Source of the DNA: Bacillota bacterium
GTDB lineage: Bacteria; Bacillota; SHA-98; Ch115; JABLXJ01
Reading direction: 5' to 3'
NCBI GenBank assembly: GCA_013178125.1
Contig: JABLXJ010000001.1
Coordinates: 326,538 to 390,537, forward strand
DNA length: 64,000 nucleotides
In this document: piece by piece, positions 8,494 through 26,957 of the stretch
Numbering within the stretch: the stretch's first letter is position 1
How the letters are laid out: every line of letters starts with the position of its first letter
The notes under the pieces: model-generated
Databases searched by the model: none
Seen by the model: the letters and a program-made list of their open reading frames with translations, nothing else
What the model was told of the DNA's origin: nothing
Program-made: the position numbers and the translations under genes

Positions 8494-8504
8494 GTGGTGA
8501 TAGC

Positions 8505-9473: not shown

Positions 9474-9485
9474 GGGGTGAGGTGA

Positions 9486-10103: not shown

Positions 10104-10112
10104 CGAGGAGAG

Positions 10113-10901: not shown

Positions 10902-10932
10902 GACTGTTGGCGGTGCTTGGGGGGGTGATGGA

Positions 10933-11970
10933 ATGGCACAGCTCAAATATTGGAATGGAAGCGCGTGGGTGGATTATAAGAAAAAGCCAAAGTATTGGAA
11001 TGGTAGTCAGTGGGTGTCTGGTATCGGCAAAGTGTGGAATGGGAGTGCATGGGTAGACCTCTTGAGTTATTATTCTTATTTTGGTAGTTGGGCTAGCACC
11101 TATTCTTATTCTAATTTGTATAAGGTTTCATCTACTGGGTCTCAGGTGTGGCAAGTTCGTTGGACTTTCCAAGGCATAAGAGATGTGAAAGTAGACCCTA
11201 ATGGATATATTTATACTGCTAGTGGTGACGGCGCTGCTGTCCGCAAAATATCACCTTCCGGCTCCCTGGTGTGGCGTTTTGTGGGCAGTACTGGATATGG
11301 TGCAAATGGAGTAGCAGTAGGTTCTGATGGATACGTTTACTCTGCTAATAGTGACGGTACTGTCCGTAAAATAACACCTAATGGTGGACAGGTGTGGTGT
11401 TTTACTGACCCGGATCGCACATTTTATGCTGTAGCAGTAGATATTAATAACTATGTGTACGCTGGCTGTTCTAACTATACTAAAGCTATTCGCAAAATAT
11501 CACCTAGTGGGGGAGAGGTATGGGCTTTATCTCGTAGCAGTTTTGGGTCGGATGTAGTAGTAGATGCCCAAGGGAATGTTTATTGTAGCTCCGGAAGCCT
11601 TTATAAGGTGTCATCAAGCGGTTCAGTGCTATGGGAATTCACAAACGCGAGCGGAAGTCCTACAGTAGGCCCTGGTGGATATGTTTATGCGTCCGGTAGT
11701 AGTGGTCTTATCGCTAAAATATCACCTAGTGGATCACAAGTGTGGGGTTACACCGATCCAAATTCATCTTCGGTAATTAGTCTAACAGTAGACCCATACG
11801 GATATATTTATTATTGTCCTTATGCAGGGGCACCCTCTTCATCTACTGTATATTGCTATTACAAAATATCGCCTAGTGGTGTTAGATTATGGACTTTCGT
11901 TGTTGCGGAAGGTGAAGGATATGTTGCAGTTGACCCTGGAGTTTTAGGAGCTTTCCCAAGTTATTGGTAA
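10933..11970 (+). CDS. beta-propeller repeat protein, putative distal tail/receptor-binding protein
   Basis: Seven repeats of the type VRKISPSGS.VW.F; three N-terminal WNGSAWV repeats; RBS before ATG at 10933 (track start 10879 overlaps upstream gene); AT-rich. Confidence 0.5.
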   Translation: MAQLKYWNGSAWVDYKKKPKYWNGSQWVSGIGKVWNGSAWVDLLSYYSYFGSWASTYSYSNLYKVSSTGSQVWQVRWTFQGIRDVKVDPNGYIYTASGDGAAVRKISPSGSLVWRFVGSTGYGANGVAVGSDGYVYSANSDGTVRKITPNGGQVWCFTDPDRTFYAVAVDINNYVYAGCSNYTKAIRKISPSGGEVWALSRSSFGSDVVVDAQGNVYCSSGSLYKVSSSGSVLWEFTNASGSPTVGPGGYVYASGSSGLIAKISPSGSQVWGYTDPNSSSVISLTVDPYGYIYYCPYAGAPSSSTVYCYYKISPSGVRLWTFVVAEGEGYVAVDPGVLGAFPSYW

Positions 11971-11991
11971 ATTAACAAGGAGGAATGATCT

Positions 11992-12300
11992 ATGCCGATG
12001 CTGTTTTATGAGACGGAATCTGATACGCGAGGTCGGGTAATGCTGATTCATTACATGCCCGAGCAATTGACTGAGGAAGAGCGTAGCAAGGGAATAAGCG
12101 TAGATATAGTTCCTGACCCTCCGCAGCCGGTGAAAGGCAAATCCCATGTGCTCTACGTAAATCCTCAAACGGGCGAGACCTGGTATGAGCAGGTGGATAG
12201 GCTGCTTACGCAGGAGGAGCAGATGGAGGACCTGCGGAGCCAGAATCTTGACCTAATGGCTGCCATCGCCGATATGGCTGTAAAACTGGGGGTGATATAA
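11992..12300 (+). CDS. hypothetical phage protein
   Basis: ORF with RBS (aaggagg) following tail-fibre genes. Confidence 0.4.
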   Translation: MPMLFYETESDTRGRVMLIHYMPEQLTEEERSKGISVDIVPDPPQPVKGKSHVLYVNPQTGETWYEQVDRLLTQEEQMEDLRSQNLDLMAAIADMAVKLGVI

Positions 12301-12301
12301 C

Positions 12302-12457
12302 ATGAGCGCTTACTGGGTTAACATATTCTATTCCCTTGTTACGAGCGGAAGGAAGACCGTCAATGATGTACCTGAGAGTATAAGGCAACAGGTGATTGAT
12401 AGGCTCACGCAGGAAGGTTATGTAATGAATCCTGATGGCTCGGTGACGAAGGTCTAG
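12302..12457 (+). CDS. small phage protein (XkdX-like), 51 aa, absent from ORF track
   Basis: ATG one base after upstream stop; translation MSAYWVNIFYSLVTSGRKTVNDVPESIRQQVIDRLTQEGYVMNPDGSVTKV. Confidence 0.35.
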   Translation: MSAYWVNIFYSLVTSGRKTVNDVPESIRQQVIDRLTQEGYVMNPDGSVTKV

Positions 12458-12537
12458 TCTAAGAGTATATAGTGTAGAATGTAGAGTCTGCCTCTGGGCG
12501 GCTTTTTCATGTACTCCAAAAGGGCGGTGGTGGTAAC

Positions 12538-12771
12538 ATGGAACTCATACAGCTCCTTTCCCAATATCCTGCGGCTACGCTCGTTTTTGTGGCGTGGCCG
12601 CTTCTGTTTGTGTGGTTGCTCTGGTGGACCATGAAGGAACACGCGAAACGTGAAGAGCGGCTGATGGCGGCGAACGAGAGCTGGCGTGTCGCGTTGGAGA
12701 AGCTCGCGGAGAAGATAGACCAGCTCGGTGATAACCTTTTAGAGCGGTTGCGCGACGAGCTGAGGAGGTGA
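12538..12771 (+). CDS. putative holin / lysis-associated membrane protein
   Basis: 77 aa, one N-terminal hydrophobic helix and charged coiled-coil tail, immediately before the amidase gene. Confidence 0.45.
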   Translation: MELIQLLSQYPAATLVFVAWPLLFVWLLWWTMKEHAKREERLMAANESWRVALEKLAEKIDQLGDNLLERLRDELRR

Positions 12772-12777
12772 TGCCGT

Positions 12778-13338
12778 ATGCCGGAGATGAAAAGGCTGAT
12801 CTGCCTCGATCCAGGACACGGTGGGGTGGACCCCGGAGCTATAGGCCAGGCCGGGATTAAGGAAGCGGATATTAACCTGGCCGTAGCGATGAAGCTCAAG
12901 ACGGAGCTGGCTGAGAGAGGCATTCCCACTGTAATGACCAGGGATGACGATACGTTCGTGTCGCTCCAGGATCGCGCATCCAAGGCGAATGCTGCGAATG
13001 CTGCGGTTTTTATTTCCCTGCACTGCAATTCGGCTCAAAACCGCGAAGCGAATGGTGCCGAGGTTTACTACTGCATTGGCAGCAGGCCCGGGGAAGCCCT
13101 GGCGAACGCGATACATGCTTCCCTGATCAAGGCTACCGGCCTCGTCGATCGTGGTGTGAAGGGGACAGGCTTCTATGTCCTCCGGCATACCAAGATGCCT
13201 GCTGTCTTGGTGGAGCTCGCGTTTATTTCTAATTCGGGAGAGGAGGAGCTATTGGCAAATGAGGGATTCCAGTTGAAGGCCGCAAGGGCCATTGCCAGCG
13301 GGATAATAGATTATCTGAAAGGAGCGAGGAAAATATGA
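12778..13338 (+). CDS. N-acetylmuramoyl-L-alanine amidase (endolysin, Amidase_3-type)
   Basis: Motifs CLDPGHGG and LHCNS...EVYY; lysis cassette position. Confidence 0.85.
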   Translation: MPEMKRLICLDPGHGGVDPGAIGQAGIKEADINLAVAMKLKTELAERGIPTVMTRDDDTFVSLQDRASKANAANAAVFISLHCNSAQNREANGAEVYYCIGSRPGEALANAIHASLIKATGLVDRGVKGTGFYVLRHTKMPAVLVELAFISNSGEEELLANEGFQLKAARAIASGIIDYLKGARKI

Positions 13339-13622
13339 GTATACTGAAGGTTCTGGGTTATATCCGTATCGCATTATGCCTTGTCCTACCGTTCGCGGTA
13401 TTGGCAGAGGATACTGGCCAGCCGGGCGAAGAGAAGAAGAAGATGGTTGTAGGTCGGCTGAAGGATGAACTCGCCAGACTTGGCTTGGTTCTTCCTGAGT
13501 GGTTGAAGAAGTATGAGGAGTTTCTGCTGGGCGTAGTGGTTGATGTCGTGGTGGCGATCTTGAACCGCATGGGTTTTTTCGAGCATTCCGGGACATCCGA
13601 GCCCGACTTGAAGCCAGCGTGA
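13335..13622 (+). CDS. putative holin-like membrane protein
   Basis: 95 aa with two hydrophobic segments; start overlaps amidase stop. Confidence 0.4.
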   Translation: MSILKVLGYIRIALCLVLPFAVLAEDTGQPGEEKKKMVVGRLKDELARLGLVLPEWLKKYEEFLLGVVVDVVVAILNRMGFFEHSGTSEPDLKPA

Positions 13623-14147: not shown

Positions 14148-15164
14148 ATGGCTACAATAAAGGACGTTGCAAGGGAAGCAGGGGTATCTATAGCCACTGT
14201 TTCCCATGTGCTAAACAATACTACTTTGGTAAGCGAGAAAACTGCGCAAAAGGTACTGGCAGCGATTAAAAAGGTCAATTATCATCCAAATAGCGTCGCC
14301 CGTAGCCTGGTCACTAAGGTCACTATGACGCTGGGTATTATCATTTCTAATATCACAAATCCATTTTATCCTGAAGTGGTTCACAGCATTAGTCGGGCAG
14401 CCGCAAAGAATGGATATGATATCATTCTCACGAGTACGAACAACGACGAAGAGGGTATTGCTCAATCAGTTCGCACTTTGTGTAAGCGAAAGGTTGACGG
14501 GGTTATTATCTTGGCTAGTAAATTTGATGATAATTTAATCTCTCAACTTACCGAACAAGGCATGGAAGTCGTTGTCTATGATAGGAATATCCCTACACTT
14601 CCGGTAGATAGTGTAGAAATTGACTATGAATTTGGGATATCGCAAGCTATACAATATCTGAAGGATCTAGGTCACACCCGTATTGGGTATATAGGTGGGG
14701 CACCTGATTGGTTGACTGCTCAAAAACGTCTAATAGCATTTCAAAATGCCATGTCTAGATATGGCTTAAAAATAGATGAGCGTTTAATTGTCGCGAAAGA
14801 CTGGACATTACGAGGCGGATTTCAGGCAATGAATACTATGTTGCGGATAAAAAGCAGACCAACGGCAATAGTTGCGTGTAATGATATAGTCGCTGTAGGA
14901 GCCTTAAAGTCTATTAGAAGAAAAGGTCTAAAATGTCCTGAGGATATTTCAGTTGTAGGAATTGATGATATTGTATTGGCATCATTGATTACACCGGCTC
15001 TTACAACCATTGCCTTACCTCGAAATCAAATTGGCGAGGTTGCTACGAAAATGGTTATAAAACGGCTTAGACATAAGGGGCCTCACAGCCAGAAACCCTA
15101 CACAGTCATATTCAGACCCAATCTGGTAATCCGGGACTCGACAGGGCCCCCTTTTTTCAAGTAG
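14148..15164 (+). CDS. LacI-family transcriptional regulator
   Basis: N-terminal HTH MATIKDVAREAGVSIATVSHVLNN; sugar-binding-like C-terminal domain; RBS ggagg. Confidence 0.9.
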   Translation: MATIKDVAREAGVSIATVSHVLNNTTLVSEKTAQKVLAAIKKVNYHPNSVARSLVTKVTMTLGIIISNITNPFYPEVVHSISRAAAKNGYDIILTSTNNDEEGIAQSVRTLCKRKVDGVIILASKFDDNLISQLTEQGMEVVVYDRNIPTLPVDSVEIDYEFGISQAIQYLKDLGHTRIGYIGGAPDWLTAQKRLIAFQNAMSRYGLKIDERLIVAKDWTLRGGFQAMNTMLRIKSRPTAIVACNDIVAVGALKSIRRKGLKCPEDISVVGIDDIVLASLITPALTTIALPRNQIGEVATKMVIKRLRHKGPHSQKPYTVIFRPNLVIRDSTGPPFFK

Positions 15165-15327
15165 TGGGTTATATCTTTTCAATAGTCTTCTATAGGTCTA
15201 CAATTGACCATAGCATTGGCCCAGTATGGGATTCCGTATAAGGGGGTGGGTATATGATCTAGGGGACGCTTGATAATTGGTGAGATCTTTTGGTAACTAA
15301 GATAAATTGCAAAGGGGTGTATGGTTA

Positions 15328-16359
15328 ATGAAGGTCCGACAAGTAAATAGATATGTTATTCTTGTGTCGTTGATAGTCTGTATTTCATTTATTCTTATGG
15401 GAACCCTATCTGCTTTTGCTAAAACACCCACGATCGCCTTAGTTCCAAAATGGGAGGGCATTCCTTATTTCACTGTTGCTGCCGAAGGGGCTAAGCTAGC
15501 TGGTAAACAACTAGGGGTTAATGTAATCTACGTTGGCCCGAGCGAACCCGATGCCACTCAGCAGGTTCAAGTTATTAATAATTTGATTTTACGTGGAGTT
15601 GATGCTATAGGTATATCCGTTATGGATGCTAATGTACTAAAACCTGTCATCAAGAAGGCAAGGGAAGCTGGCATCCATGTTTTCACTTGGGATTCCGATG
15701 CCCCGGACTCTGAGCGGGAAGTCATGGTCCAACAAGTATCTCCAAAGGAACTCGGGTACACTGTAATGGATCTTCTTGCAAAAGAAATGAACTACAAGGG
15801 CAAATTCGCTATTATCACTGGCGATCTAGCTTCTAACCAGCTCAACGAATGGATGGAGTATGAAAAGGAACGCTACCAACAAAAGTACGCCAAGACAATG
15901 GAACTCGCTAGTATAAAAGCTCCTGGGGTTACTTTCGATAAGGTCTTTGATACTGTAAGCACTATGATGCGGACTATGCCCGAGATTACCGGCTATATCG
16001 GGGAGCATTCGGAAGCTGGGCCTGGAATTGCTGCCGCTGCCGAACATGTTAAGGTTTCCCCGCAAAAGGTGGTTGCGGTAGCTATCACTACTCCTGACAA
16101 CATGAGGAAGTATTTCAAGAAAGGAAACTCGGTCGTCCGCTATGGAGTTCTTTGGGATGTTAAAGCCTTAGGCTATGTGTCCGTTTGGGTAGGTAAGCAA
16201 CTGATTGAAGGAAAGCCACTTACAGATAAAGTACCAGGTATTGAGCAATTTGAGGCAATTGAGGAAGGGTACCCTAAATATATCCCTGAAAAGAAGTGGG
16301 TACTACTTGGTCCACCTTTAATATTCAATGAGAAAAATATAGATAAATATCATTTCTAA
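15328..16359 (+). CDS. ABC transporter substrate-binding protein (periplasmic-binding-protein type 1, sugar-type)
   Basis: Signal peptide then PBP1-like sequence; start placed at ATG 15328 after RBS (track start 15307). Confidence 0.8.
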   Translation: MKVRQVNRYVILVSLIVCISFILMGTLSAFAKTPTIALVPKWEGIPYFTVAAEGAKLAGKQLGVNVIYVGPSEPDATQQVQVINNLILRGVDAIGISVMDANVLKPVIKKAREAGIHVFTWDSDAPDSEREVMVQQVSPKELGYTVMDLLAKEMNYKGKFAIITGDLASNQLNEWMEYEKERYQQKYAKTMELASIKAPGVTFDKVFDTVSTMMRTMPEITGYIGEHSEAGPGIAAAAEHVKVSPQKVVAVAITTPDNMRKYFKKGNSVVRYGVLWDVKALGYVSVWVGKQLIEGKPLTDKVPGIEQFEAIEEGYPKYIPEKKWVLLGPPLIFNEKNIDKYHF

Positions 16360-16398
16360 ACTCTATTGTAAACCCCTAATTCGTCTAGGAGATAAGGT

Positions 16399-16420
16399 TA
16401 ATATATATATATATATATAT
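16399..16420. repeat. (AT)n dinucleotide microsatellite, about 11 units
   Basis: taatatatatatatatatatat read directly. Confidence 0.9.
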
Positions 16421-16427
16421 GCCACTT

Positions 16428-16450
16428 GGCTCCGGGGTAAACCCGGAGCC
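16428..16450 (+). other. perfect 9-bp stem-loop between substrate-binding and ATPase genes (no T-run)
   Basis: ggctccggg gtaaa cccggagcc. Confidence 0.5.
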
Positions 16451-16508
16451 GTCTCTGAGTATACACTCTACTGGCCTTCGCAGGCCTGATGAGGGGAGAG
16501 CCTTCTTA

Positions 16509-18002
16509 ATGGCGGAATTAATGGAATTAAAGGGTATAAGCAAGGAATTTGGAGGCGTCAAGGCCCTAGTAGATGTAGATTTTGAGCTGAGGTCAGGCGA
16601 GATTCATGCCTTAGTCGGGAAGAATGGAGCGGGTAAGAGTACGCTTGTCCAAATCCTTTCCGGGGTAATAAATCCAGATAAAGGTAAAATTTTTTATAGA
16701 GACCAAGATGTAACCTGCTGGAATAACCGGCAAAAACGACTACGGATTTCCCACGTATTTCAACATATACAATATTTTCCAGAGCTTCCTGCTGGAAAGA
16801 ATATCTTCATTGGTAGGGAAGAGGTCGATCGCTACGGTAGACTTAAGTGGGATCAAATGTATGGGAGTCTGGAAGATATTTTATCTAAATTCGGCATCGA
16901 TAAACAGATTCTTTATCGGCCGATGAGAGAGCTTTCTGTAATGGAAAGAGAAATCATCGCAATTGTAGAAGCCCTTTCCAAAAATTCAGAGATATTCATT
17001 TTTGATGAGCCTACTGCTGCGTTAGGAAAAGATGAGGCTGAGCAACTTCTATCGGTAATTCAGGACCTTAAGGCCAAAGGTGCGGCTATTGTCTATATTA
17101 GTCACCGTCTTGAAGAAATTATAGGATTTGCAGACTATGTAACGGTACTACGTGATGGTCGAAAGATCTCCACTGATTCCATGGCTTCTATAACTAAAGA
17201 GCAGATCGTACACAAAATGGTTGGTGAAAAGATAGGACACATTTATCCTCACCGAACTACCCAACATCGTGGCTCTGTTTTACTGAAGGTGAGCCAGCTA
17301 ACTAAACGTTCTGTTTTTGAAAACATTACATTTGAAATACACGAAGGGGAAATCTTAGGACTAGCTGGGCTATTAGGTGCGAAACGAACAGACATTGCTC
17401 AAGCTATATTTGGCACGATAACCTATGATTCGGGTACAGTTGAGATTGAAAGAATCTCCTTGCCTAAGCATAGTCCCGCGCTCTCCATCGAAAAAGGTCT
17501 AGTGTACTTACCTGAGAACAGGCAAGAAGACGGTTTAATCCTTAGTACAAGCATCCGAGAGAATATCACTTTGCCAATCCTTCGTCAATTCGGTGGGAAT
17601 GGTTTTTTAAACCGCATTGTAGAACGGAAGATCGTTCAGGATAGTATCGACCGTCTAGGGATTAAGGCTGAAGATATTGATACTTTAGTAAATCATTTAA
17701 GCGGTGGAAATCAACAAAAAGTCTTATTCGCTAAATGGCTCAACACCTCTCTGAAAGTGTTAATGCTTGACGAACCAACCCAGGGTATTGACGTTGAGGC
17801 GAAAGCAGAAATCCACCGCATCCTCGGCGATCTTGTTAATCATGGCATAGGAATCCTTCTTATATCTTCTGACCTGGAGGAGCTCATAGCTATGAGCGAT
17901 CGAATCATCGTCGTCCACGAAGGGCGGATAATCTCCGAATTTACAGGTAGTGAAGTGACTATCGAAAAAATCCTGCTCGCCGCTATGGGGGTGCAACAAT
18001 GA
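16509..18002 (+). CDS. ABC transporter ATP-binding protein, two fused nucleotide-binding domains
   Basis: Walker A GKNGAGKST, LSGGNQQK signature; start placed at ATG 16509 after RBS gaggggagag (track start 16419 lies in the AT repeat). Confidence 0.9.
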   Translation: MAELMELKGISKEFGGVKALVDVDFELRSGEIHALVGKNGAGKSTLVQILSGVINPDKGKIFYRDQDVTCWNNRQKRLRISHVFQHIQYFPELPAGKNIFIGREEVDRYGRLKWDQMYGSLEDILSKFGIDKQILYRPMRELSVMEREIIAIVEALSKNSEIFIFDEPTAALGKDEAEQLLSVIQDLKAKGAAIVYISHRLEEIIGFADYVTVLRDGRKISTDSMASITKEQIVHKMVGEKIGHIYPHRTTQHRGSVLLKVSQLTKRSVFENITFEIHEGEILGLAGLLGAKRTDIAQAIFGTITYDSGTVEIERISLPKHSPALSIEKGLVYLPENRQEDGLILSTSIRENITLPILRQFGGNGFLNRIVERKIVQDSIDRLGIKAEDIDTLVNHLSGGNQQKVLFAKWLNTSLKVLMLDEPTQGIDVEAKAEIHRILGDLVNHGIGILLISSDLEELIAMSDRIIVVHEGRIISEFTGSEVTIEKILLAAMGVQQ

Positions 18003-18979
18003 ATTCTTCTGGACCCGTACGCAAGACCCCCAGGTCAAATCAGTTTGGCTCAATGCTATACGAACGAGAAGTCCTTGCCCTTTTGGTAGCGATAATTATG
18101 TGGGTTGCATTTGGGTTGATAAATCCACGTTTTCTGACATGGGCAGGCATAACTGACATTATTTTTTCCTCAACAGTTATTGCAGCCGGGGCTCTTGGGA
18201 GCAGCATGGTTATTATAGCGGGCGAATGGGATCTCTCTGTCGGTTCGATGTTAGCTTTGCAGGCGACCATTATTGCGCTACTCGCTAGCTCAAATGTGGT
18301 TACCAATCTATTTGTTATGATCCTGGTTGTGATAGTAATCGGAATGGTGCTTGGTTTCATTAATGGGATTCTGGTATCGTTTGGGGGACTTTCTTCGATT
18401 ATAGTTACCATTGGTACTATGTTTGTTTACCGAGGTCTGTGCTTGATAATAGCTGGTGGACGATGGTTTACCAGTCTACCAGCGTGGTTAACTAGTGTCG
18501 GTCAGGTATCAACATTTGGTATAAGGCCTTCTCTCATCATTATCCTTGTTCTTACTGCAATATTATCTCTTTTCATGAGCCAAACAAGACTAGGGCTTTG
18601 GATTTACGCTTTAGGTGGGAATGAAAACGCACTACGTCTAAAAGGGATAAATGTACGCTGGGTAAAAGTATTAGTTTTCTGTACTACCGGGGTACTAGTT
18701 GGTGTGGCCGCATTGATTTTGGCTGGTCAGTATGGGTACGTGCAGACTGATATTGGCTATGACTACGTCATGGCCACCATTGCAGCAGCGATTGTTGGAG
18801 GTACCAGCGCCTTCGGCGGTCGAGGTCGTATAGGCGGAGCTATTATTGGAGCGCTGTTAATTGGAATCATGAAAACAGGATTGGTTGCTATAAACATTCC
18901 AGCCCAATGGTATAACGTAGTGCTCGGCATCCTGATCTTACTTTCAATGACCAGGGAAATGCTACAGAAACGTACCTGA
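17999..18979 (+). CDS. ABC transporter permease
   Basis: Polytopic membrane protein; start overlaps ATPase stop. Confidence 0.85.
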   Translation: MNSSGPVRKTPRSNQFGSMLYEREVLALLVAIIMWVAFGLINPRFLTWAGITDIIFSSTVIAAGALGSSMVIIAGEWDLSVGSMLALQATIIALLASSNVVTNLFVMILVVIVIGMVLGFINGILVSFGGLSSIIVTIGTMFVYRGLCLIIAGGRWFTSLPAWLTSVGQVSTFGIRPSLIIILVLTAILSLFMSQTRLGLWIYALGGNENALRLKGINVRWVKVLVFCTTGVLVGVAALILAGQYGYVQTDIGYDYVMATIAAAIVGGTSAFGGRGRIGGAIIGALLIGIMKTGLVAINIPAQWYNVVLGILILLSMTREMLQKRT

Positions 18980-19004
18980 GCATATGAGGAGTGGTGAATT
19001 GAGC

Positions 19005-19943
19005 ATGGTCAAAGAAGCTATGGCAGCCAAGCGTGAATCTTTACTACTCATAATCCTGGTGGCCTTGATTCTTTTATTTGGAGGGCTCTCGCCTAACTTC
19101 CTTGTTCCGTACAGCTTCACTGTAATGAGCCAGTATCTAGCGGAAATAGGGTTACTATCCTTGGCTATAACTATAGGGCTCATTAGTGGGCTTCTTGATC
19201 TGTCAATAGGTTCGATCTTCGGGCTTTCTGCTGTTTCTATTGGCTTACTGGCTAAGACCGGATTAAATATCTGGGTGTCAGCATTTCTTGGAGTTATAAT
19301 TGGCATGGTAGCTGGCGGATTGAATGGAATCCTGGCAGCCTTTACGCCCATTCCCCCATTGATTATTACTCTGTCTACTCAATTCATCTTTGCAGGGATT
19401 AGTCTAGCACTAACTCGCGGCAACCCAGTCACTGGTCTCCCTGAAAATTATTCGTTCATAGGCCAGACTCAGATTGGTCCGGTACCACTGCAACTACTAG
19501 TTTTTCTAATCGTTACGATTGCCTCTTCAATTCTTATGCAGTACATGGGGCTAGGACGCAAGATGCGCCTCATGGGGAAAAGTAACCGTGTTGCATGGTT
19601 TTCTGGTGTCAACGTCCCTATGGTAAAGATCATGGTCTATGTGTTATCCGGCTTTCTTAGCGCTTTAGCCAGTATTATTCTTACTTCAAGAGTAATGACA
19701 GCTAGGCCGGATGCTGGCCAGACTCTAGGGTGGACAATCCTGACAGTAGCTTTTTTAGGCGGCGCTTCCCTGGAAGGGGGTACTGGTACGATCCTAGGGG
19801 CATTATTCGGTGCCATGATTATTGTGATATTATCTACAGGGATCGAGGTTGTCGGTTTAGATATCGGCCAGCGGTTGTTGACTCAGGGTTTGGTTTTGCT
19901 GGTTGTAGCAGGAACAGGTAGACTTCTTAAAATCAAGGATTAG
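19005..19943 (+). CDS. ABC transporter permease (second)
   Basis: Polytopic membrane protein; ATG 19005 has an RBS (track start 18984 does not). Confidence 0.8.
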   Translation: MVKEAMAAKRESLLLIILVALILLFGGLSPNFLVPYSFTVMSQYLAEIGLLSLAITIGLISGLLDLSIGSIFGLSAVSIGLLAKTGLNIWVSAFLGVIIGMVAGGLNGILAAFTPIPPLIITLSTQFIFAGISLALTRGNPVTGLPENYSFIGQTQIGPVPLQLLVFLIVTIASSILMQYMGLGRKMRLMGKSNRVAWFSGVNVPMVKIMVYVLSGFLSALASIILTSRVMTARPDAGQTLGWTILTVAFLGGASLEGGTGTILGALFGAMIIVILSTGIEVVGLDIGQRLLTQGLVLLVVAGTGRLLKIKD

Positions 19944-19961
19944 AGTAAGGGGGAAATGAAT

Positions 19962-20702
19962 ATGAGTAGTGATTTCATCCATACGCTATCCAATATATTA
20001 AGTAATCTGGAGTTTGTTGATTTAAGTCACCGATTAGAGGAGGATATTCCAACTTTCCCAACACATTCCCATTTTTATCATTTGAAATGGGAGAATCCTG
20101 ATGATCCCGCTACGATGTTTCAATTCATGATGCATGAACATAATGGTACCCATGTCGATGCTCCAGCCCATTATCTAAGGGAAGGTGTAGGGAATAGGGA
20201 GGATGCATGGATTGATGCTATTCCGCTCCAAACTCTCATTGGCCCTTGTAAGGTTCTTCAATTAGCAGGATTCGATAACCGTAATCTCTTATCCAAGTGC
20301 CATATTGAGGACTGGGAAGCTAATCACGTTCGAATCCAGAAAGATGATATTGTACTCTTGAATTTCGGCTGGCATAAACGTTGGACTACCTCTAAGGAAA
20401 GATATCAGTTCGCTAAAGATTGGCCGGGGCTCACGAGGGACGCGGCCCTTTACCTAGCCGAAAAAGAGGTTAAGGCTGTGGGGACCGATTGCATTGGACT
20501 CGATTGTTGTGGTAGTACCGAAATACCAGCTCATGATGTGTTACTTGCTCGCAACATATTAATCATGGAGAATTTAGCAAATCTTGATTTATTACCGGAT
20601 GAAAGCTTCTTCATCGCTTTTCCGCTAAAAATTAAACAAGGTTCTGGGTCTCCTATACGGGCGGTTTCCCTTATACCCAAGACAGGGGGATCGATGACGT
20701 AG
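19962..20702 (+). CDS. cyclase-family protein (kynurenine formamidase-like metal hydrolase)
   Basis: Motif HEHNGTHVDAPAHY; RBS taagggggaa. Confidence 0.8.
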   Translation: MSSDFIHTLSNILSNLEFVDLSHRLEEDIPTFPTHSHFYHLKWENPDDPATMFQFMMHEHNGTHVDAPAHYLREGVGNREDAWIDAIPLQTLIGPCKVLQLAGFDNRNLLSKCHIEDWEANHVRIQKDDIVLLNFGWHKRWTTSKERYQFAKDWPGLTRDAALYLAEKEVKAVGTDCIGLDCCGSTEIPAHDVLLARNILIMENLANLDLLPDESFFIAFPLKIKQGSGSPIRAVSLIPKTGGSMT

Positions 20703-20750
20703 CTTCTCACCGAAAATGTAAGGATAATTAAATATAGGGAGTGGGATCAG

Positions 20751-21935
20751 GTGGTTTGTAGAAATAGTATTAGTAACGAATTCCGGCAAAGATGGGTTAA
20801 ACTGAAGGAAAAAATGATTACGAGGGGGCTAGATCTTCTCTTTATTTATTCCAATGACCGTGCTGTATTTGGTCCTGGAAATATACGGTACCTGTCAAAT
20901 TTCCCTGTACACTTTGAACACGCAGCGATCATTATGCCAAGATTCGGGGAACCCATCTTGGCAGTCGGACCGGAAACAAGGGAATATGCTGAGTTAAGTT
21001 CCGAAGTTAAAGATATACGGGTAATTAAAGAGTTCGCCATTCCCGATGAAGAATATCCTTATACCAGTATGACCTCTTTATCAGCGATCTTGGAAGAAAT
21101 CAGGTCAAACTCGGGCAACGAGGTAAGGTCAATAGGCCTCATTGGCTTAGATTTATTGCCCTGGTCCCTCTATCAGGTTCTTGAAAATACTCTTCTATCG
21201 AACCGACGGGTGGAAAACGCCGAGGACATTTTGATAGATATGAGATCGATTAAAAGTCAATATGAAATTGAAATAATTGAAGAAGGGTATGCGATTGCCG
21301 ATAAAGCAATGGAGGCCTGTGTCGAAGCCGTTCATGTCGGGACAACAGAGTTGGCTATTGCTGCGGCTGGGGAAGCAGTGATGAGAAAGCTAGGTGCCGA
21401 GGGGTATGCGATAGATACAATCGTTGCTAGTGGTAAACAAAGAACCTATCCGATTGTAGTCCGTCCTTCTGATCGTAAAATTGAGAAAGGCGATGTGGTT
21501 TTAATCACTATGGGTCCTCGATATAAGGGGTACAATCCTGCGATCGGTCGACCTGTGATCGTGGGGGATGCACCGGAAGTAATTATCGAGGCAATGCAAT
21601 TAGCATTAAAAGCTCAGCATGCCGCGGAGGCAGCCTTACGCCCCGGCGCCATCGGGTGTGACGTGGAGGGAATGGCCCGTAAAGTCTTAGCGGAGGCTGG
21701 GCTTGAGCAATACTTTGTTTATGCCGGGGTGCATAGTGTTGGGCTAGCCGAATTTGAGCCTCCGATCCTTTCCCCCAAAAGTAACCTGCAGGTGAAGGAG
21801 AATATGGTCTTGTCCATCGATATCCCACTTTTCCTTACCCCATGGGGTGGATTCCGTTACGAGGATGGATTCGTCGTTACCAGCGATGGTTGTCGACGAT
21901 TGAATCATTTCCCGCGAGAGATCATTAAAGTTTAA
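20751..21935 (+). CDS. M24-family metallopeptidase (Xaa-Pro peptidase / creatinase-like)
   Basis: Creatinase-like N-domain plus M24 pita-bread region (GVHSVGLAEFEPP, FRYEDGFVVT). Confidence 0.8.
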   Translation: MVCRNSISNEFRQRWVKLKEKMITRGLDLLFIYSNDRAVFGPGNIRYLSNFPVHFEHAAIIMPRFGEPILAVGPETREYAELSSEVKDIRVIKEFAIPDEEYPYTSMTSLSAILEEIRSNSGNEVRSIGLIGLDLLPWSLYQVLENTLLSNRRVENAEDILIDMRSIKSQYEIEIIEEGYAIADKAMEACVEAVHVGTTELAIAAAGEAVMRKLGAEGYAIDTIVASGKQRTYPIVVRPSDRKIEKGDVVLITMGPRYKGYNPAIGRPVIVGDAPEVIIEAMQLALKAQHAAEAALRPGAIGCDVEGMARKVLAEAGLEQYFVYAGVHSVGLAEFEPPILSPKSNLQVKENMVLSIDIPLFLTPWGGFRYEDGFVVTSDGCRRLNHFPREIIKV

Positions 21936-22276
21936 TCCATACAGTGAGGGACCCTTATGGTGGGCACTCCCGGCTACATGAGATGGTCTTGGCACCACAC
22001 TATACAGTCCGAACAGGGGAAGATACAGCCATTCCTACGGCTTGGAGTGCCTTCCCGCAAACCCCCGGCAGGGGAAGACGTAGACGATAACGTTGACCCT
22101 CTTGTTCTACCTACATTTCGCACCCCTCAGGGGTATGTGGGGACATTTTCTGAGGTCATATGTGAAGATGGGACGGTAGCGCCCGTGTAATAGCGTAAAA
22201 AGTAGAAGGGGCCCGGGAAAGAGGAAGGCCCCCCTTGATAGATGAGGTTTTATTAAACCTCCCGTTCGCCCCTTGT

Positions 22277-22307
22277 GCCCGGTCGGAAGGCCGGGCTTTT
22301 ATGTTTT
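22277..22307 (+). terminator. intrinsic terminator
   Basis: Stem gcccgg/ccgggc with 8-nt loop followed by ttttatgtttt. Confidence 0.5.
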
Positions 22308-22336
22308 ATCTAAATTCCAAAAGAATCTCCTCATAG

Positions 22337-22368
22337 CTATTGACATATTCAATAATTATTGATATAGT
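22337..22368 (+). promoter_or_regulatory. sigma-70-like promoter (TTGACA, 17 bp, TATAGT) with embedded palindrome TCAATAATTATTGA; copy 1
   Basis: Read directly; 30 bp nearly identical to 23511-23540. Confidence 0.5.
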
Positions 22369-22404
22369 ATAAGTGATGAAAGGAAATTGCAGGAGGGAAA
22401 CGAA

Positions 22405-23196
22405 ATGACAAACAGGGCATTCGGAATTGAAATAGAGGCTTATGGAGTGAGCCAGTTCGAGCTAGAGGACAGACTCCGGCAGGCTGGGATACAGGTAAGG
22501 GTTGAAGGGTACAACCATAGCACCAGGGAACACTGGAAAATAGTTAGCGACGGCTCAATCCAAGGCCCGGACTCGTTCGAACTAGTCAGCCCTCCACTGA
22601 GCGGAGAAGAAGGACTCAATCAGATTAGGACAGTATGCCGGGTGCTGGATGAGGTAGGCGCGAAGGTTAACAAGTCGTGTGGCTTCCATGTCCACCACTC
22701 GGCGGCAGACCTGACACCAAAGGCCCTGCAGGCATTGATCGGACTATACACTAGGTTCCAGGGCGCGCTAGACGAGATAGTAGCAAAGAGCCGCCGCGGT
22801 AATAACAATACATACTGCCGGGCCCTTAGCAATGAACTATACTACAGGGCCCTCAGGCGGGATGACTTACAGGGTATTGTATGTTGCCAGGATAGTAGGT
22901 ATTATAAACTTAACCTGCAAGCATATCTGAGGCATGGCACGATAGAGATTCGGCACCACCAGGGCACCGTGAATGCTGACAAAATAATAAACTGGATCAG
23001 GTTGACCCAGGCGATAGTTGAGGCGGCGGTGAGGTTAAACCACAGCAAGCTGAGCTTGGACAACCACACGGGCCGTCTGGATCACGACAGGTGGCACTTC
23101 TGGAACACAGTGAAAAAGGTCTTGGATGCAGGTGAATTCGAGGAGCTAAGGGCATACTACGGGCAGCGGCGCAAGGAGCTCGCCGCTGCCGCCTAG
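22405..23196 (+). CDS. glutamine-synthetase-like amidoligase (Amidoligase_2-type), putative
   Basis: N-terminal FGIEIE and C-terminal GTIEIRHHQGT motifs recalled as typical of GS-like amidoligases; RBS aggaggg 7 nt before ATG. Confidence 0.5.
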   Translation: MTNRAFGIEIEAYGVSQFELEDRLRQAGIQVRVEGYNHSTREHWKIVSDGSIQGPDSFELVSPPLSGEEGLNQIRTVCRVLDEVGAKVNKSCGFHVHHSAADLTPKALQALIGLYTRFQGALDEIVAKSRRGNNNTYCRALSNELYYRALRRDDLQGIVCCQDSRYYKLNLQAYLRHGTIEIRHHQGTVNADKIINWIRLTQAIVEAAVRLNHSKLSLDNHTGRLDHDRWHFWNTVKKVLDAGEFEELRAYYGQRRKELAAAA

Positions 23197-23206
23197 AAAG
23201 GCGGTA

Positions 23207-23446
23207 ATGACTATGAAGGTGGTTACATACGAGGGACAGGTCATAGAAGGGACTCCGGAGAAAATAGTCCAAAAGCTAGCGGATACCAGTTTTACTGATT
23301 CTGGGATGCCCGGCCCTGAATATATGCGGACGGTAGCCCGCAGGATAGCGGCCTTGCATGGCGAGGAGCAAGCAGAGGAGATAGAAGACCCGGAAGGATT
23401 CCTCCGGGTTATGGAGCGGTATGGAGTGCTGCGGATAGAAGAGTAG
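23207..23446 (+). CDS. hypothetical small acidic protein (79 aa), co-transcribed with the amidoligase
   Basis: Starts 10 bp after the amidoligase stop. Confidence 0.4.
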   Translation: MTMKVVTYEGQVIEGTPEKIVQKLADTSFTDSGMPGPEYMRTVARRIAALHGEEQAEEIEDPEGFLRVMERYGVLRIEE

Positions 23447-23510
23447 ATACCATAGGGCACTTATCGTCGATAGAATTCTGCTCAAAAAATCTAAATAAAT
23501 TCATTCTGTC

Positions 23511-23542
23511 TTATTGACATATTCAATAATAATTGATATATT
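23511..23542 (+). promoter_or_regulatory. sigma-70-like promoter (TTGACA, 17 bp, TATATT) with near-palindrome; copy 2
   Basis: ttattgacatattcaataataattgatata, 2 mismatches from copy 1. Confidence 0.5.
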
Positions 23543-23580
23543 AAAAAGGGAAAGGAGATACACCAAAGGAGGCAGTCCTA

Positions 23581-23838
23581 ATGGATAGTAAACAGAAACT
23601 TGGAATACTACAGGCCGAGATGGAGGAAGTTAAGCGGGTGATCAAGAGGGTTGAGGATGCGGCATATAGTACCGGCAACCTTGATGAGGTAGTGGGAGCG
23701 ACCGGAGACTATGGAGTAATCCTGGATGCACTGAGGGAGAAAGAAAATTCCATACGATGGTCGATAGAAGTGGTGCATAGAGAGATTAGGGAAGCCACCG
23801 AGGGTGAAGAAGATTTACTGAGCCAGTTAGTCAGATAA
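23581..23838 (+). CDS. hypothetical small coiled-coil protein (85 aa)
   Basis: RBS aaaggaggcag; follows promoter copy 2. Confidence 0.4.
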   Translation: MDSKQKLGILQAEMEEVKRVIKRVEDAAYSTGNLDEVVGATGDYGVILDALREKENSIRWSIEVVHREIREATEGEEDLLSQLVR

Positions 23839-23891: not shown

Positions 23892-24185
23892 ATGTTAATA
23901 ACATTTGGAGAGGCCGCCCGTAGGTGGAAGATAGATATTTCGACTTTGCATAGGGCGCACCAGAGAGGAGAGCTGCCTGCCCGGCAGTCTGCTGGGTCCT
24001 GGCTTTGCGAGGAGGAGGATGTCCGGGCCGTTTTTGGTGAGGAGAATCCTCCGGAGGGTTGGGTAACGATCCCTGAAGCAGTCAGACTCCTGGGCATTAC
24101 CAAGGCAGCGGTGTACTCAAAGGTGAAACGTGGAATACTGCCTTCGGTGAAAGCCCAGGGCATTTTATGGGTTCCGCGGCCATAA
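23892..24185 (+). CDS. excisionase/MerR-like HTH DNA-binding protein with two HTH_17-like halves
   Basis: Two repeats of the type ITFGEAARRWKIDISTLHR and VTIPEAVRLLGITKAAVYSKVKRG. Confidence 0.5.
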   Translation: MLITFGEAARRWKIDISTLHRAHQRGELPARQSAGSWLCEEEDVRAVFGEENPPEGWVTIPEAVRLLGITKAAVYSKVKRGILPSVKAQGILWVPRP

Positions 24186-24286
24186 AGAAGGACTTTTACG
24201 TTTCTTATCATGCCTATGAGGGATTGAAATGATATTGTGTTTGTTACAGGATTTACTATCATACTTATAAGGATTCCCTTTTTTGG

Positions 24287-24310
24287 ATCCGGTTTTAGAC
24301 CGGATTTTTC
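24287..24310 (+). terminator. intrinsic terminator
   Basis: atccggt tttag accggat followed by tttt. Confidence 0.45.
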
Positions 24311-24416
24311 GATGTATCCTATGGAAACCTTTGTATCACTTGTTGACATCGTGATCAAAACCTGATACGGTTGGAATTGAATGAAAATCCTCCTGCATGT
24401 GGGAAGGGATATTGAA

Positions 24417-25364
24417 ATGACAGCTATGCAGAAGTGGACGAAGGAGTCTGTTGTGGAGGCTATCCATGCACGGTCTAAGAAAGGGCTGGCACTAAATTAT
24501 CAAGCTGTTGTAAAGGACGATGAACCGCTTACAGGTGCCGCCAGGCGATATTTCGGCTCCTGGAATACAGCGTTACAAGCGGCTGGATTTGACCCGGCAG
24601 CGATAAAAAGGGAGGCAAGGAGTGGACTTCGCAGATCGCGCGGCTCCTGGACTAAGGAGGATGTAATCGAGGGTATTCGTAGAGCGGCGGCGGAGGGTCA
24701 AGACCTCTCGGCGCATAGGATGCAACAGTGGGACCCTTCTTTAGTGGCTACGGGCCAGCGGCTATTTGGTTCCTGGGCCGATGCACTCAAGGCCGCAGGA
24801 TACGCGCCTGACCTAATTTACAGGGCTCGTGTGTGGACGGATGATGAAATCCTCAAGCGTGTCAAGTATTTAGCCAAGTATGGCGCTGACCTGACTGACC
24901 GGACTGCATCCGGATACGACAAAGGTCTCTATGCCGCGGCCATAAAACATTTCGGGTCATGGGCTTCTGCCTTGGAACGGGCGGGAGTTCCACCTGAGCG
25001 GCGCACGGCGAAGTGGTCGAAGAATAAGGTTTTGGAGGCTATCCGTAATGGTAGGCGTGATGGCACGATTAAAGCTATAGCTCTGGATTATTTCCCTTCA
25101 TGGGCAACGGCCCTACGGAAGGCAGGTATCCCGGAAGATAAGGCACAAGAAGTCGGCAACCGTATCCGTGAACGACGGGAGGCTCTGGGTATGAGCCAGG
25201 GTGAGTTAGGCCGGTTCTTAGGGTATAGTCATAGGACCATTTCGATGCTGGAACTTGGGCAGCTCCGTGATCCGCGGGTAAGTGTGGCATTGAAGCTGGC
25301 GAAGGCACTGAAGTGTAGTGTTGAGGACATCTTCTATACTGAGGAAAAGGAAATATTATTCTAA
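24417..25364 (+). CDS. DNA-binding protein with four homing-endonuclease-associated repeats (HEAR) and C-terminal XRE HTH
   Basis: Four repeats ending FGSW..AL..AG; C-terminal HTH LGMSQGELGRFLGYSHRTISMLELG; RBS gggaaggga before ATG 24417. Confidence 0.6.
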   Translation: MTAMQKWTKESVVEAIHARSKKGLALNYQAVVKDDEPLTGAARRYFGSWNTALQAAGFDPAAIKREARSGLRRSRGSWTKEDVIEGIRRAAAEGQDLSAHRMQQWDPSLVATGQRLFGSWADALKAAGYAPDLIYRARVWTDDEILKRVKYLAKYGADLTDRTASGYDKGLYAAAIKHFGSWASALERAGVPPERRTAKWSKNKVLEAIRNGRRDGTIKAIALDYFPSWATALRKAGIPEDKAQEVGNRIRERREALGMSQGELGRFLGYSHRTISMLELGQLRDPRVSVALKLAKALKCSVEDIFYTEEKEILF

Positions 25365-25390: not shown

Positions 25391-25816
25391 TTACTTATCC
25401 CTGAGAACCATCAGGTATGGCTCCAGGGCGGCAAGATGTACCGTGCTTGGTGTGCGTTTTCCTTTCTCCCAGGTGGCTATGGTGTGTACATCCACTCCAA
25501 TGGCCCTTGCGAATTCGACCTTCGCCAGCCCGTGGAAAAGGCGGGCTTTCCTTATGCGCTGCCCGAGCGTTTCCTCGGGCAGGGTCTCGAAACCGCCTAA
25601 ATAAGGTATTGGGACGTCAAGAGTCTGGGACAGAATCCGAAGAGTAGGCATGGAGGCCGGTTCTTTCCCGGCTTCGATCCTGCCTATTGTTGCACAGTTC
25701 AAACCGGTGATGGAAGCTAAGTCGCGGATGGTCATGCCCTTCGCTATCCTCGCCCGCCTGAGCCGCAGCCCTGGTGTGTTGCCTGGCCATTCCTGCCTTA
25801 ATACCCACGGTGGCAT
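25391..25816 (-). CDS. XRE-family transcriptional regulator with two HTH domains
   Basis: Two XRE HTH segments (GMTIRDLASITGLNCATIGRIE and LAKVEFARAIGVDVHTIATWE); start uncertain (ATG 25816 or GTG 25837). Confidence 0.6.
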   Translation of the reverse strand: MPPWVLRQEWPGNTPGLRLRRARIAKGMTIRDLASITGLNCATIGRIEAGKEPASMPTLRILSQTLDVPIPYLGGFETLPEETLGQRIRKARLFHGLAKVEFARAIGVDVHTIATWEKGKRTPSTVHLAALEPYLMVLRDK

Positions 25817-25856
25817 ATCTTTCTGTCTGGTTATCACAATTTCAAGGTTGTTGTCT

Positions 25857-26957
25857 TCACGGGCACGGGTTGGACGTTGCTATAAGAGTAAAACGAGCAG
25901 GATACCAGACGGATCCTGAGGCTCTCGATATGGTTATTACGCCATCTTCCAGGGGCTGGCGCAGGGACTCCAGGACATTCCTGCGAAACTCGGGGAGCTC
26001 GTCCAGGAAGAGCACGCCCCGGTGGGCGAGGCTTATCTCCCCCGGTCGCGGGATTTTGCCCCCGCCGATCATCCCTATGTCGGATGCGGTATGATGGGGG
26101 GCCCTGAACGGCCTCGCTGCGATCAGCCCGCTATCGGGCGAGATGAGGCCGGCTATGCTGTAGATCTTGGTGACCTGGATCGCCTCATCCCTCTCCAGCG
26201 GGGGGAGAATGGTTGGTATGCGTTTGGCGAGCATGGTCTTGCCCGATCCCGGGGGGCCTATCATAAGGAGGTTGTGCCCGCCTGCCGCGGCCACCTCGAG
26301 GGCCCGCTTGGCGTGCTGGTGGCCTTTTACATCGCTGAAGTCGACATCGAATTCGATGCTAGGCGAGGCCCCGTTGCTGCCGGCCGGGATCGGGGTGGGA
26401 GCGGAGGATGATGCGTCCAGTTCGCCGGCCAGGAAGGACAGCACTTCATTGAGGCGCCTGAAGGGATAGACCTTTATGCCTTCAACTACCGAAGCTTCCC
26501 GCGCGTTACCGGCGGGCACGATGATGCCGGGCCAGCCCTCGCGTTTTGCTACCTCAGCTATGGGGAGGATGCCTGTTGTGCCGCGGAGCTCCCCATCGAG
26601 GGAGAGCTCGCCGACGATGAGGTATTTTGAGGTGGCCTCCTCGGGGATATCGCCGCACGCCGCCACGATCCCAATTGCTATTGGAAGGTCGAAGCAGGTG
26701 CCTTCTTTTCTGATTGTTGCGGGCGCGAGGTTGACTGTTATGCGCTTTACCGGGAATTCGCGCCCCGAGTTTTTGAGGGCCGCTCTGACGCGTTCTTTGG
26801 ATTCGCGGGTTATGGTGTCGGGCAGGCCGACGATTTCGAAACAGGGGAGCCCCTGGGCGATGTCGACCTCGATCCTGACTACGTAGCCTTCTATTCCGAG
26901 GACTGCACCGCTGAAGGTCTTCGCGAGCAATGTGTCCACTCTCCTTTCCTTTCCCAT
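25857..26957 (-). CDS. comM: Mg-chelatase-like AAA+ ATPase YifB/ComM, 3'-truncated (ends right after NPCP)
   Basis: Lon-like N-domain, Walker A GPPGSGKT, Walker [11 protein letters not shown]; about 366 aa instead of about 500; stop directly after the NPCP motif. Confidence 0.7.

Follow-up and report, generated by a model that had tools for sequence, protein, structure and literature searches.

We describe here a locus in a 64,000-nucleotide stretch of a Bacillota bacterium genome (GenBank assembly GCA_013178125.1, contig JABLXJ010000001.1, positions 326,538 to 390,537 of the forward strand; hereafter the window, to whose first letter all positions refer), in which what looks from its sequence like one strong sigma-70/sigma-A promoter is present in two copies, P1 and P2. 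Each copy carries in its spacer a putative operator of the form TCAA, six A/T-rich bp and TTGA, and each stands ahead of a small operon, the second of which encodes a 97-aa protein with two winged-helix domains in tandem (the tandem helix-turn-helix, or HTH, protein). Related loci (L001/L002, L003, L113 and the more distant L209) all come from SRA assemblies, and the set used for close comparison consists of four loci, namely the window, L113, L001/L002 and L003.

P1 and P2 share a core promoter and a spacer dyad

P1 (22338-22372, plus strand) is made up of a TTGACA -35 element at 22340-22345, a 17-nt spacer and a TG-extended TATAGT -10 element at 22363-22368, and P2 (23512-23546, plus strand) of the same -35 element at 23514-23519, a spacer of the same length and TG plus TATATT at 23537-23542. 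Our promoter scan bears out the hexamers and the 17-bp spacing that had been given in a preliminary description of this DNA: each promoter matches 11 of the 12 consensus hexamer positions with 17-nt spacing and a TG extended -10, and the two are the sole promoter-like sites with no more than two hexamer mismatches in positions 1-26000 of the window. Both sequences have the features of sigma-70/sigma-A housekeeping promoters, and both are followed by an AGGAGG-type ribosome-binding site (RBS) and an ATG, which lies 36 nt (P1) or 38 nt (P2) past the -10. The pair of 30-mers reported earlier at 22337-22366 and 23511-23540 indeed lies there and differs at two of its 30 positions, the first base (c/t) and the palindrome centre (t/a), while a repeat finder stretched the repeat to 35 nt, of which 32 are identical. 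A 29-nt pattern covering P1 and P2 has exactly two matches in the 64-kb window at up to three mismatches, and none in 100 shuffles. Beyond the core promoter the flanks of P1 and P2 are not alignable. The tctaaat element that had been taken as flanking similarity is present at both promoters (22309-22315 and 23490-23496), but it stands 31 nt from the -35 in one case and 24 nt in the other, and given this unequal distance and the unalignable flanks we attribute it to chance.

The P1 spacer holds the dyad TCAAT-AATT-ATTGA (22349-22362), a perfect 14-bp palindrome (TCAATAATTATTGA), and the P2 spacer holds TCAAT-AATA-ATTGA (23523-23536; TCAATAATAATTGA), in which both 5-bp half-sites are intact and a single central pair is broken, so that the 14-bp palindrome previously ascribed to both copies is perfect in P1 only. 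The half-site centres are 10 bp apart and would therefore fall in neighbouring major grooves on the same face of the helix. In the whole 64 kb, TCAAT-N4-ATTGA occurs at these two places only.

The two operons and their cargo

Upstream of P1 an intrinsic terminator-like hairpin with a T-run (22277-22305, plus strand; 8-bp stem with seven GC pairs, TTTTATGTTT tail) probably insulates the promoter from upstream transcription. The first gene of the P1 operon (22405-23196, plus strand; AGGAGG RBS) encodes an Amidoligase_2 protein (PF12224, E 3e-45; phrog_2443 amidoligase), which is 100% identical to a Firmicutes protein from a metagenome-assembled genome (MAG) and 64-67% identical to its counterparts in L001/L002 and L003; look-ups of the exact window protein returned no match. 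The second gene (23207-23446, plus strand; the true start may be the ATG at 23213) encodes an acidic 79-aa protein with an isoelectric point (pI) of 4.7, for which we found no Pfam or PHROG family and which is 87% identical in L113 and 51-52% identical in L001/L003. Its gene directly follows the amidoligase gene in relatives wherever this is visible, and weak homologues follow amidoligase genes in the IMG/VR contigs L022, L078 and L083. The pair is widespread in phages and, to our knowledge, has no known role.

The P2 operon opens with a gene (23581-23838, plus strand) for an acidic 85-aa orphan (pI 4.7) that is predicted to form a helical hairpin. Its AlphaFold2 (AF2) model has a pLDDT of 79, a fold search gave generic helical hairpins only (E of at least 0.87), and among 5.8 billion proteins it found only itself. 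Being in the variable slot of the operon (see below), it is a candidate for anti-defence or anti-CRISPR (Acr) cargo. The tandem-HTH gene follows (23892-24185, plus strand), then a solitary CRISPR-repeat-like 31-mer, and the P2 transcript would end at a terminator-like hairpin (GGATCCGGTTTTAGACCGGATTTTT; about 24285-24311, plus strand) whose 10-bp stem appears in both the minimum free energy and the centroid fold and is followed by a U-run. No terminator lies between the two operons, and P1 transcripts therefore probably read into the P2 operon.

The dyad and the tandem-HTH gene in related loci

L001 and L003 have one promoter and one operon, in which the amidoligase gene is followed by a 78-aa gene and the tandem-HTH gene, the latter encoding proteins 57-67% identical to that of the window in L001/L002 and L003. 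Their promoters read TTGACA gatTCAAATACTTTTGA TATTAT (L001) and TTGACA ggtTCGAATACTTTTGA TATTAT (L003). L113 is closer to the window, with a tandem-HTH protein 82% identical and, downstream, a protein with HNH_repeat and XRE domains that is 71% identical to its window counterpart, and it has an equivalent of P2 at the same place (TTGACA aacTCAATTATTATTGA TATTTT). Here the slot between promoter and tandem-HTH gene is occupied by a 40-aa open reading frame (ORF) of the AcrIC5 family (PF22147; 49.3 bits against a cut-off of 27, E 5.6e-13), after which come the tandem-HTH gene, the HNH_repeat-XRE gene 25 nt further on and a large serine recombinase gene on the other strand. When L113 280-440 was compared with window 23511-23604, about 30 nt were found to resemble the 5' untranslated region (UTR) and first codons of the 85-aa gene, with the start codon gone. 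This vestige, followed by the unrelated AcrIC5-like gene, indicates that the cargo was replaced while the promoter ahead of it and the HTH gene behind it were conserved. The relative of the HTH protein in L209 is more distant and free-standing (100 aa, E 1.5e-27), and its gene follows an ArdC-N antirestriction-like gene and a 51-aa ORF. Two RNA-like elements were seen in these contigs, in L209 a type II hammerhead ribozyme (209-272, plus strand; 43.2 bits, above the Rfam gathering score) ahead of the ArdC-like gene and a Y-RNA-like (YrlA) match beside a TROVE/Ro60-like gene in L003 (4896-4963, plus strand; 32.5 bits, below gathering).

The dyad reads TCAAT-TATT-ATTGA in L113, TCAAA-TACT-TTTGA in L001 and TCGAA-TACT-TTTGA in L003, and with P1 and P2 this leaves a core common to the five promoters of TCAA, six mostly A/T bases and TTGA. 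Upstream flanks and 5' UTRs cannot be aligned between the promoter groups, while the half-sites are kept. In all four loci (4/4) the tandem-HTH gene stands behind the dyad promoter and in the same operon, and it alone is linked to the dyad promoter throughout, an arrangement that fits an autoregulator. The cI/cro operators of L001 are of a different kind (TTGCGAaTCGCAA), and the L001 dyad is therefore not the immunity operator.

A scan of 185,579 genomes with TTGACA-N3-TCAAT-N4-ATTGATAT returned 30 loci, none of which encodes a homologue of any window protein, and a scan of IMG/VR with the exact promoter returned no match. A looser promoter pattern gave 29 viral loci in IMG/VR, which we set aside as uninformative on selection for the palindrome because the pattern itself forces TC.A...TTGA; the IMG/VR amidoligase loci, at most 50% identical, were likewise too distant for promoter comparison. 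At the genome loci (L115, L133, L120 and others) the layout TTGACA-N3-TCAAT-N4-ATTGA-TAT recurs in unrelated bacteria. Several copies precede housekeeping genes, and others lie ahead of Patescibacteria genes, at a site conserved in Rhizobium, or ahead of a gene for a 68-aa XRE protein in a Bacillota MAG (L120); that protein is unrelated to the window XRE proteins.

The tandem winged-helix protein

The 97-aa protein had been listed among XRE/HTH proteins, and the label XRE does not hold, since what it contains are two excisionase/MerR-type winged-helix domains. Pfam HTH_17 matches it in two stretches, the TIGR01764 excisionase domain scores above its cut-off, and its AF2 model (pLDDT 95) shows two beta-alpha-alpha-beta-beta winged-helix units that fill the chain. 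Fold matches are to Xis, BldC, the N-domains of MerR proteins (HiNmlR, SoxR and TipA) and TraN; the top Foldseek match is TraN of pIP501, but with a TM score of 0.36. There is no sequence match in the PDB at E <= 1 except noise, and no solved Aca structure was matched; the fold matches likewise include no Aca. HTH_17 is not among the HTH families tabulated for Aca1-10 and AcrIIA1 (PMC9410906), and Aca14 is a ribbon-helix-helix protein (PMC13551039). By tabulated HTH families, PDB search and fold matches the 97-aa protein thus lies outside the known Aca families.

The close family of the tandem-HTH protein is small: of 1.84 billion representative clusters three reached E <= 1e-30, two of these being long proteins in which six or seven stretches match, and JGI metagenomes, IMG/VR and INPHARED gave no member. 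A unit with about 35% identity to the entire 97-aa protein was also seen as the C-terminus of large 'recombinase family' proteins, in L208 (pWW53, NC_008275.1 76006-77688) and on five other plasmids, in Pseudomonas, Bradyrhizobium and Mycetohabitans, and the tandem winged-helix module may derive from, or act with, site-specific recombinases. In L113 a serine recombinase gene is two genes away from the tandem-HTH gene and in L001 a tyrosine integrase gene is three genes away; near the tandem-HTH gene of the window there is no integrase or recombinase gene.

A CRISPR-repeat-like unit in the P2 operon

The 31-mer (GTTTCTTATCATGCCTATGAGGGATTGAAAT; 24200-24230, plus strand) begins 14 nt past the stop codon of the tandem-HTH gene, ahead of the terminator, and its orientation, ending in ATTGAAA, is that of P2 operon transcription. 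In sequence and hairpin it resembles a CRISPR repeat, with a full-model match to Rfam CRISPR-DR2 (31.8 bits, E 0.0028 in a 4-kb search) that stays under the gathering score of 37. With a 1-nt insertion it is 27/30 identical to GTTTTTATCGTACCTATGAGGGATTGAAAC, the repeat of metagenome arrays with up to 32 units; the next best GTTTTTATCGTACCTATGAGGGATTGAAAC-like site in the window reaches only 19/30, and the window has no other copy and no CRISPR array or cas match. No repeat copy lies upstream of the 31-mer. A possible degenerate second copy (24251-24276, plus strand), which is uncertain, starts 20 nt after the first and is without the 3' ATTGAAA handle; it agrees at 19 of 25 aligned positions, with a local alignment score of 12.5 that was reached by 1.3% of 5000 shuffles. 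Because of this downstream copy the 31-mer might, instead of being solitary, be the remnant of a decayed mini-array. Viral contigs contain solitary units of this repeat family, and the related loci contain no repeat mimic.

Relatives of the GTTTTTATCGTACCTATGAGGGATTGAAAC repeat have been typed as I-B and are cas-associated in Weizmannia coagulans (PMC8954581). The flanks of two metagenome arrays with the matching repeat contain no cas genes, and the I-B subtype is therefore drawn from the typed W. coagulans relatives only. We regard the 31-mer as a candidate RNA anti-CRISPR (Racr) of this I-B-type repeat family. Racrs are solitary repeat units enriched beside acr genes, and for type I-C a Racr candidate has been described 11 nt downstream of an AcrIC5 homologue, the two being co-transcribed as a bicistronic RNA (PMC10651486). 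Similar to the Racrs of Camara-Wilpert et al. 2023, the window unit is a single intergenic prophage repeat unit beside acr-type genes and is placed for co-transcription; it differs in being I-B-type, and the degenerate downstream copy would put it outside the 'solitary' definition of SRUFinder (no other unit within 100 bp).

Other candidate regulators downstream and the prophage setting

Two further HTH proteins are encoded beyond the P2 operon. The first (24417-25364, plus strand) carries three HNH_repeat units and a C-terminal XRE HTH (PF18780, PF01381), the latter resembling the P22 C2 and 434 repressors, and its gene is present in two of the four loci, the window and L113. In the window a promoter of its own, P3 (24342-24370, plus strand; TTGACA-17-TACGGT), can be read from the sequence ahead of it, below the threshold of the promoter scan. 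P3 is flanked or overlapped by GTATCA at 24332, TGATCA at 24351 and TGATAC at 24362, which may form a separate operator set, and it has no TCAAT/ATTGA dyad. P3 is absent in L113, where the HNH_repeat-XRE gene lies within the upstream operon. The second protein, with two HTH_3 (XRE) domains (25391-25816, minus strand), is encoded at the prophage end, convergent to the module, on the comM strand and 40 nt past the truncated comM; it has no counterpart beside the module in L001, L003 or L113. In 25391-25856 its gene is without a clear promoter of its own, and it could be expressed by read-through from the host comM promoter. The regulator had earlier been sought among these three HTH proteins together, and an HTH gene does lie in the dyad-promoter operon of all four loci (4/4), though the only one of the three to be present in all of them is 23892-24185.

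The 5' part of comM/yifB (Mg-chelatase-like; 25857-26957, minus strand) is cut directly after NPCP and forms the right prophage junction. In this fragment the Mg_chelatase profile is covered at 1-160 of 207 and the ChlI domain is complete; the C-terminal part was not found in the window by what is a weak test with an E. coli YifB C-terminal query. Window 17-13338 encodes tape-measure, baseplate and tail-fibre proteins and an Amidase_3 endolysin, and the tail/lysis module as a whole (1-13340) is homologous to L001/L003, with the holin-amidase stretch matching both contigs. From these phage modules and the truncation of comM at 25857 it follows that window 1-25856 is a prophage inserted in comM, whose left end must lie outside the window together with the other half of comM and the integrase. 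This agrees with the segmentation by G+C content (51-52% in the phage modules and 56-58% in the flanking chromosome, with 44% in the block at 14148-21935). That 8-kb block separates the lysis genes of the prophage from P1. Its genes are for a LacI-type regulator, the components of a sugar ABC transporter (binding protein, ATPase and two permeases), a cyclase and an M24 peptidase, and it looks like foreign material, either unusual metabolic cargo or a secondary insertion; an (AT)10 run at 16401-16420 stands just ahead of its ABC ATPase gene. Between the block and P1 are 400 nt of 52% G+C (21936-22336) that end in a strong terminator (22277-22296). This stretch has a 77-aa ORF (21957-22190) but no convincing gene and no Rfam match, and its folding energy is not unusual. 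In the host part of the window, 34463-34482 form a perfect 20-bp palindrome (CATTTGTATATATACAAATG). The lysis genes of L001 are followed by small genes, then by the amidoligase, 78-aa and tandem-HTH genes, two more small genes, the attachment region and the integrase, which places P1 and P2 in the accessory region adjoining the attachment site. It is in this region that prophages keep morons and anti-defence genes.

Discussion

Taken together, the AcrIC5-family gene of L113, the ArdC-N neighbour of L209, the acidic 85-aa orphan and the repeat mimic point to an anti-defence setting, and we suggest that the locus is best read as an acr-aca-like anti-defence locus whose cargo would, by analogy, act against host defences. 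In acr-aca loci the anti-CRISPR genes are kept in check by a DNA-binding autorepressor, Aca, encoded with them. Similar to acr-aca loci, P1, P2 and the L113 promoter have an inverted repeat inside the core promoter, which serves as a criterion for such loci (PMC9410906), small and variable genes for acidic cargo share their operon with a conserved HTH gene downstream, the operator is repeated at a neighbouring operon, the position is a prophage accessory region, and the L113 slot holds an AcrIC5-family gene. AcrIC5 itself occurs with many different Aca families (PMC9765179) and is found across Firmicutes (PMC7913775). Moreover, Aca proteins are predicted, and for Aca11, Aca13 and Aca14 have been shown, to control neighbouring operons via extra copies of their site (PMC13551039), which by analogy would match exactly a promoter-operator duplicated on two operons. 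The locus differs from the described examples in that the candidate regulator is a single chain with two HTH_17 winged-helix domains, the window slot holds an orphan, and the putatively co-regulated operon encodes an amidoligase. It thus looks like a new example of a known control scheme and not like a new mechanism.

For the regulator itself, the closest parallel is TraN of the Enterococcus plasmid pIP501 (PDB 4pm3/4p0y; promoters Ptra and PtraNO), a protein of likewise roughly 100-120 aa with two winged-helix domains in one chain. TraN, an internal dimer that acts as a monomer, represses two promoters, including the one that precedes its own gene; one chain occupies one site, inserting its recognition helices into neighbouring major grooves while the wings reach into the minor groove between them (PMC6158623). 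However, its site is markedly asymmetric whereas the window dyad is symmetric, and it regulates conjugation genes and not phage anti-defence genes. Members of the MerR family share the winged-helix fold of each domain and have operators that are dyads in the -35/-10 spacer, but the 97-aa protein has neither a coiled-coil dimerisation helix nor an effector domain and so falls outside that family, and the window spacer is 17 nt long as opposed to the 19-20 nt of MerR-activated promoters. With this optimal 17-nt spacer, binding should occlude RNA polymerase and not activate by DNA distortion. As with the excisionase-repressors P2 Cox and 186 Apl and with Xis or recombination directionality factor (RDF) proteins, the window gene lies near a prophage attachment end; those proteins, however, have a single domain and oligomerise on direct repeats, while here the domains are fused and the repeat is inverted and within a promoter.

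Of the proteins considered, the tandem winged-helix protein is the most likely repressor. Whether the dyad is an operator that it binds at both promoters is, in our estimate, an evenly balanced question, and several observations weigh against it. On the DNA side, the TTGA half overlaps the extended -10, and only the TCAA half is therefore without a promoter explanation; the swap of T/A to A/T that keeps the symmetry is a single event in an A/T-rich centre; only four homologous loci are known, and all five promoters are homologous and therefore amount to one or two independent observations; in L209 no similar promoter is visible. The P1 and L001 spacers share 12 of 17 positions, which is about the same as the 66% identity of the adjoining, mostly coding sequence, and the layout TTGACA-N3-TCAAT-N4-ATTGA-TAT precedes a tRNA gene and rplU in unrelated genomes, so that the motif alone is no proof of a dedicated repressor. 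The overlap with the extended -10, the few and homologous relatives, the spacer identity and the recurrence of the layout at housekeeping promoters and in many unrelated genomes would suit an explanation in which there is no dedicated operator, P1 and P2 being copies of a strong constitutive 'moron' promoter spread by recombination and the palindrome a by-product of an A/T-rich spacer and an extended -10; perfect 14-bp palindromes are in any case expected about four times per 64 kb by chance (7 distinct ones in the window against 4.2 +/- 2.2 under a Markov null). We nonetheless think this explanation unlikely. A perfect 14-bp palindrome in a 17-nt spacer of P1 composition has a chance of about 0.004, and the TCAA half, which has no known promoter role, is kept in four of the five promoters (TCGA in the fifth) amid unalignable flanks. 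An unregulated near-consensus promoter ahead of an excisionase-type gene and anti-defence cargo is also not what one would expect in a lysogen, and characterised acr promoters are repressed by their Aca (PMC9410906, PMC13551039).

On the protein side, the whole AF2 model of the 97-aa protein does not superpose on TraN, and its two recognition helices differ (ISTLHRAHQRG and KAAVYSKVKRG) whereas the half-sites are symmetric; such unlike helices would not by themselves select symmetric half-sites, which a true homodimer, for instance of the XRE type, would. HTH_17/Xis proteins are usually excisionases that bind direct repeats, the PHROG matches of the 97-aa protein include 'recombination directionality factor', and the tandem unit is also found fused to recombinases on plasmids. 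The cargo adds a further difficulty, as the 85-aa protein has no Pfam, PHROG or NCBIfam family and matches no known Acr, and the repeat mimic scores under the Rfam gathering score. An operator that is real but bound by a homodimer of the HNH_repeat-XRE protein through its C-terminal Cro/CI-type HTH would fit the perfect half-site symmetry and the likeness to P22 C2 and 434 repressors, and would leave the tandem winged-helix protein as an excisionase/RDF, in keeping with its excisionase/RDF-type matches and with the serine recombinase two genes away in L113. There the HNH_repeat-XRE gene follows the tandem-HTH gene at a distance of 25 nt, in the operon of the AcrIC5-like gene. Only its two carriers, the window and L113, show the exact TCAAT/ATTGA half-sites, those of L001 and L003 having diverged or partly decayed; most known Aca families are moreover of the XRE/HTH_3 type (PMC9410906). 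Yet the protein is missing from L001 and L003, where the promoter keeps four to five of the five half-site pairs, and in the window its gene has its own P3 without TCAAT/ATTGA and a terminator before it, so that it would not autoregulate via the dyad; we consider it improbable as the binder. A very unlikely alternative, in our view, is that the dyad is bound by the tandem XRE protein (25391-25816), by an immunity repressor encoded beyond the window or by a global regulator of the host, any of which would couple the operons to lysogeny or host physiology. Prophage accessory genes are often under such control, and the tandem XRE protein, as a pseudo-dimer able to span two half-sites, adjoins the module and might be expressed by comM read-through; it is, however, absent from L113, L001 and L003, the operators of the L001 immunity region are unlike the dyad, and with just two occurrences in the 64 kb the dyad is not spread over this part of the chromosome as the sites of a regulon would be. 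Boxes for Fur, PerR, Zur, LexA, FNR and CRP, compared without matrices, were poor fits to the dyad.

If the tandem winged-helix protein is indeed the regulator, both P1 and P2 would fire at full strength on entry, and the 97-aa protein made from the P2 operon would accumulate and bind the dyad between -35 and -10, placing its two recognition helices in the major grooves 10 bp from each other and, like TraN, its wings in the A/T-rich minor groove at the centre. Binding would exclude RNA polymerase from P1 and P2, and the outcome would be negative autoregulation together with co-repression of the neighbouring operon, as by Aca at acr promoters. The preliminary description had predicted one dimeric repressor for both transcription units. 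One regulator for two promoters is plausible on these grounds and the dyad is kept, but the regulator would probably be a single chain and not an XRE homodimer.

A more complete version of this proposal can be put forward tentatively, although we are doubtful that it holds in full. In it the 97-aa protein would represent a new Aca-like family and act as a monomeric pseudo-dimer on TCAA-W6-TTGA at two promoters, co-repressing the amidoligase/79-aa pair, a new protein anti-CRISPR (the 85-aa orphan) and an I-B-type RNA anti-CRISPR carried on the regulator's own mRNA. Should the dyad be only a promoter by-product, the finding would shrink to an ordinary duplicated moron promoter. If the proposal is true, however, the 97-aa protein, as a winged helix of the Xis/MerR type duplicated within one chain, would define a structurally new class of anti-defence regulators, and its operator would be simple enough to serve in searches. 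It would also single out three cargo candidates, the 85-aa orphan, the amidoligase/79-aa pair and the I-B-type CRISPR-repeat mimic, and protein and RNA anti-CRISPR candidates would be found naturally on one transcript with their regulator. Regulator and operator together could then be used as a 'guilt by association' bait for anti-defence genes in the phages of Firmicutes.

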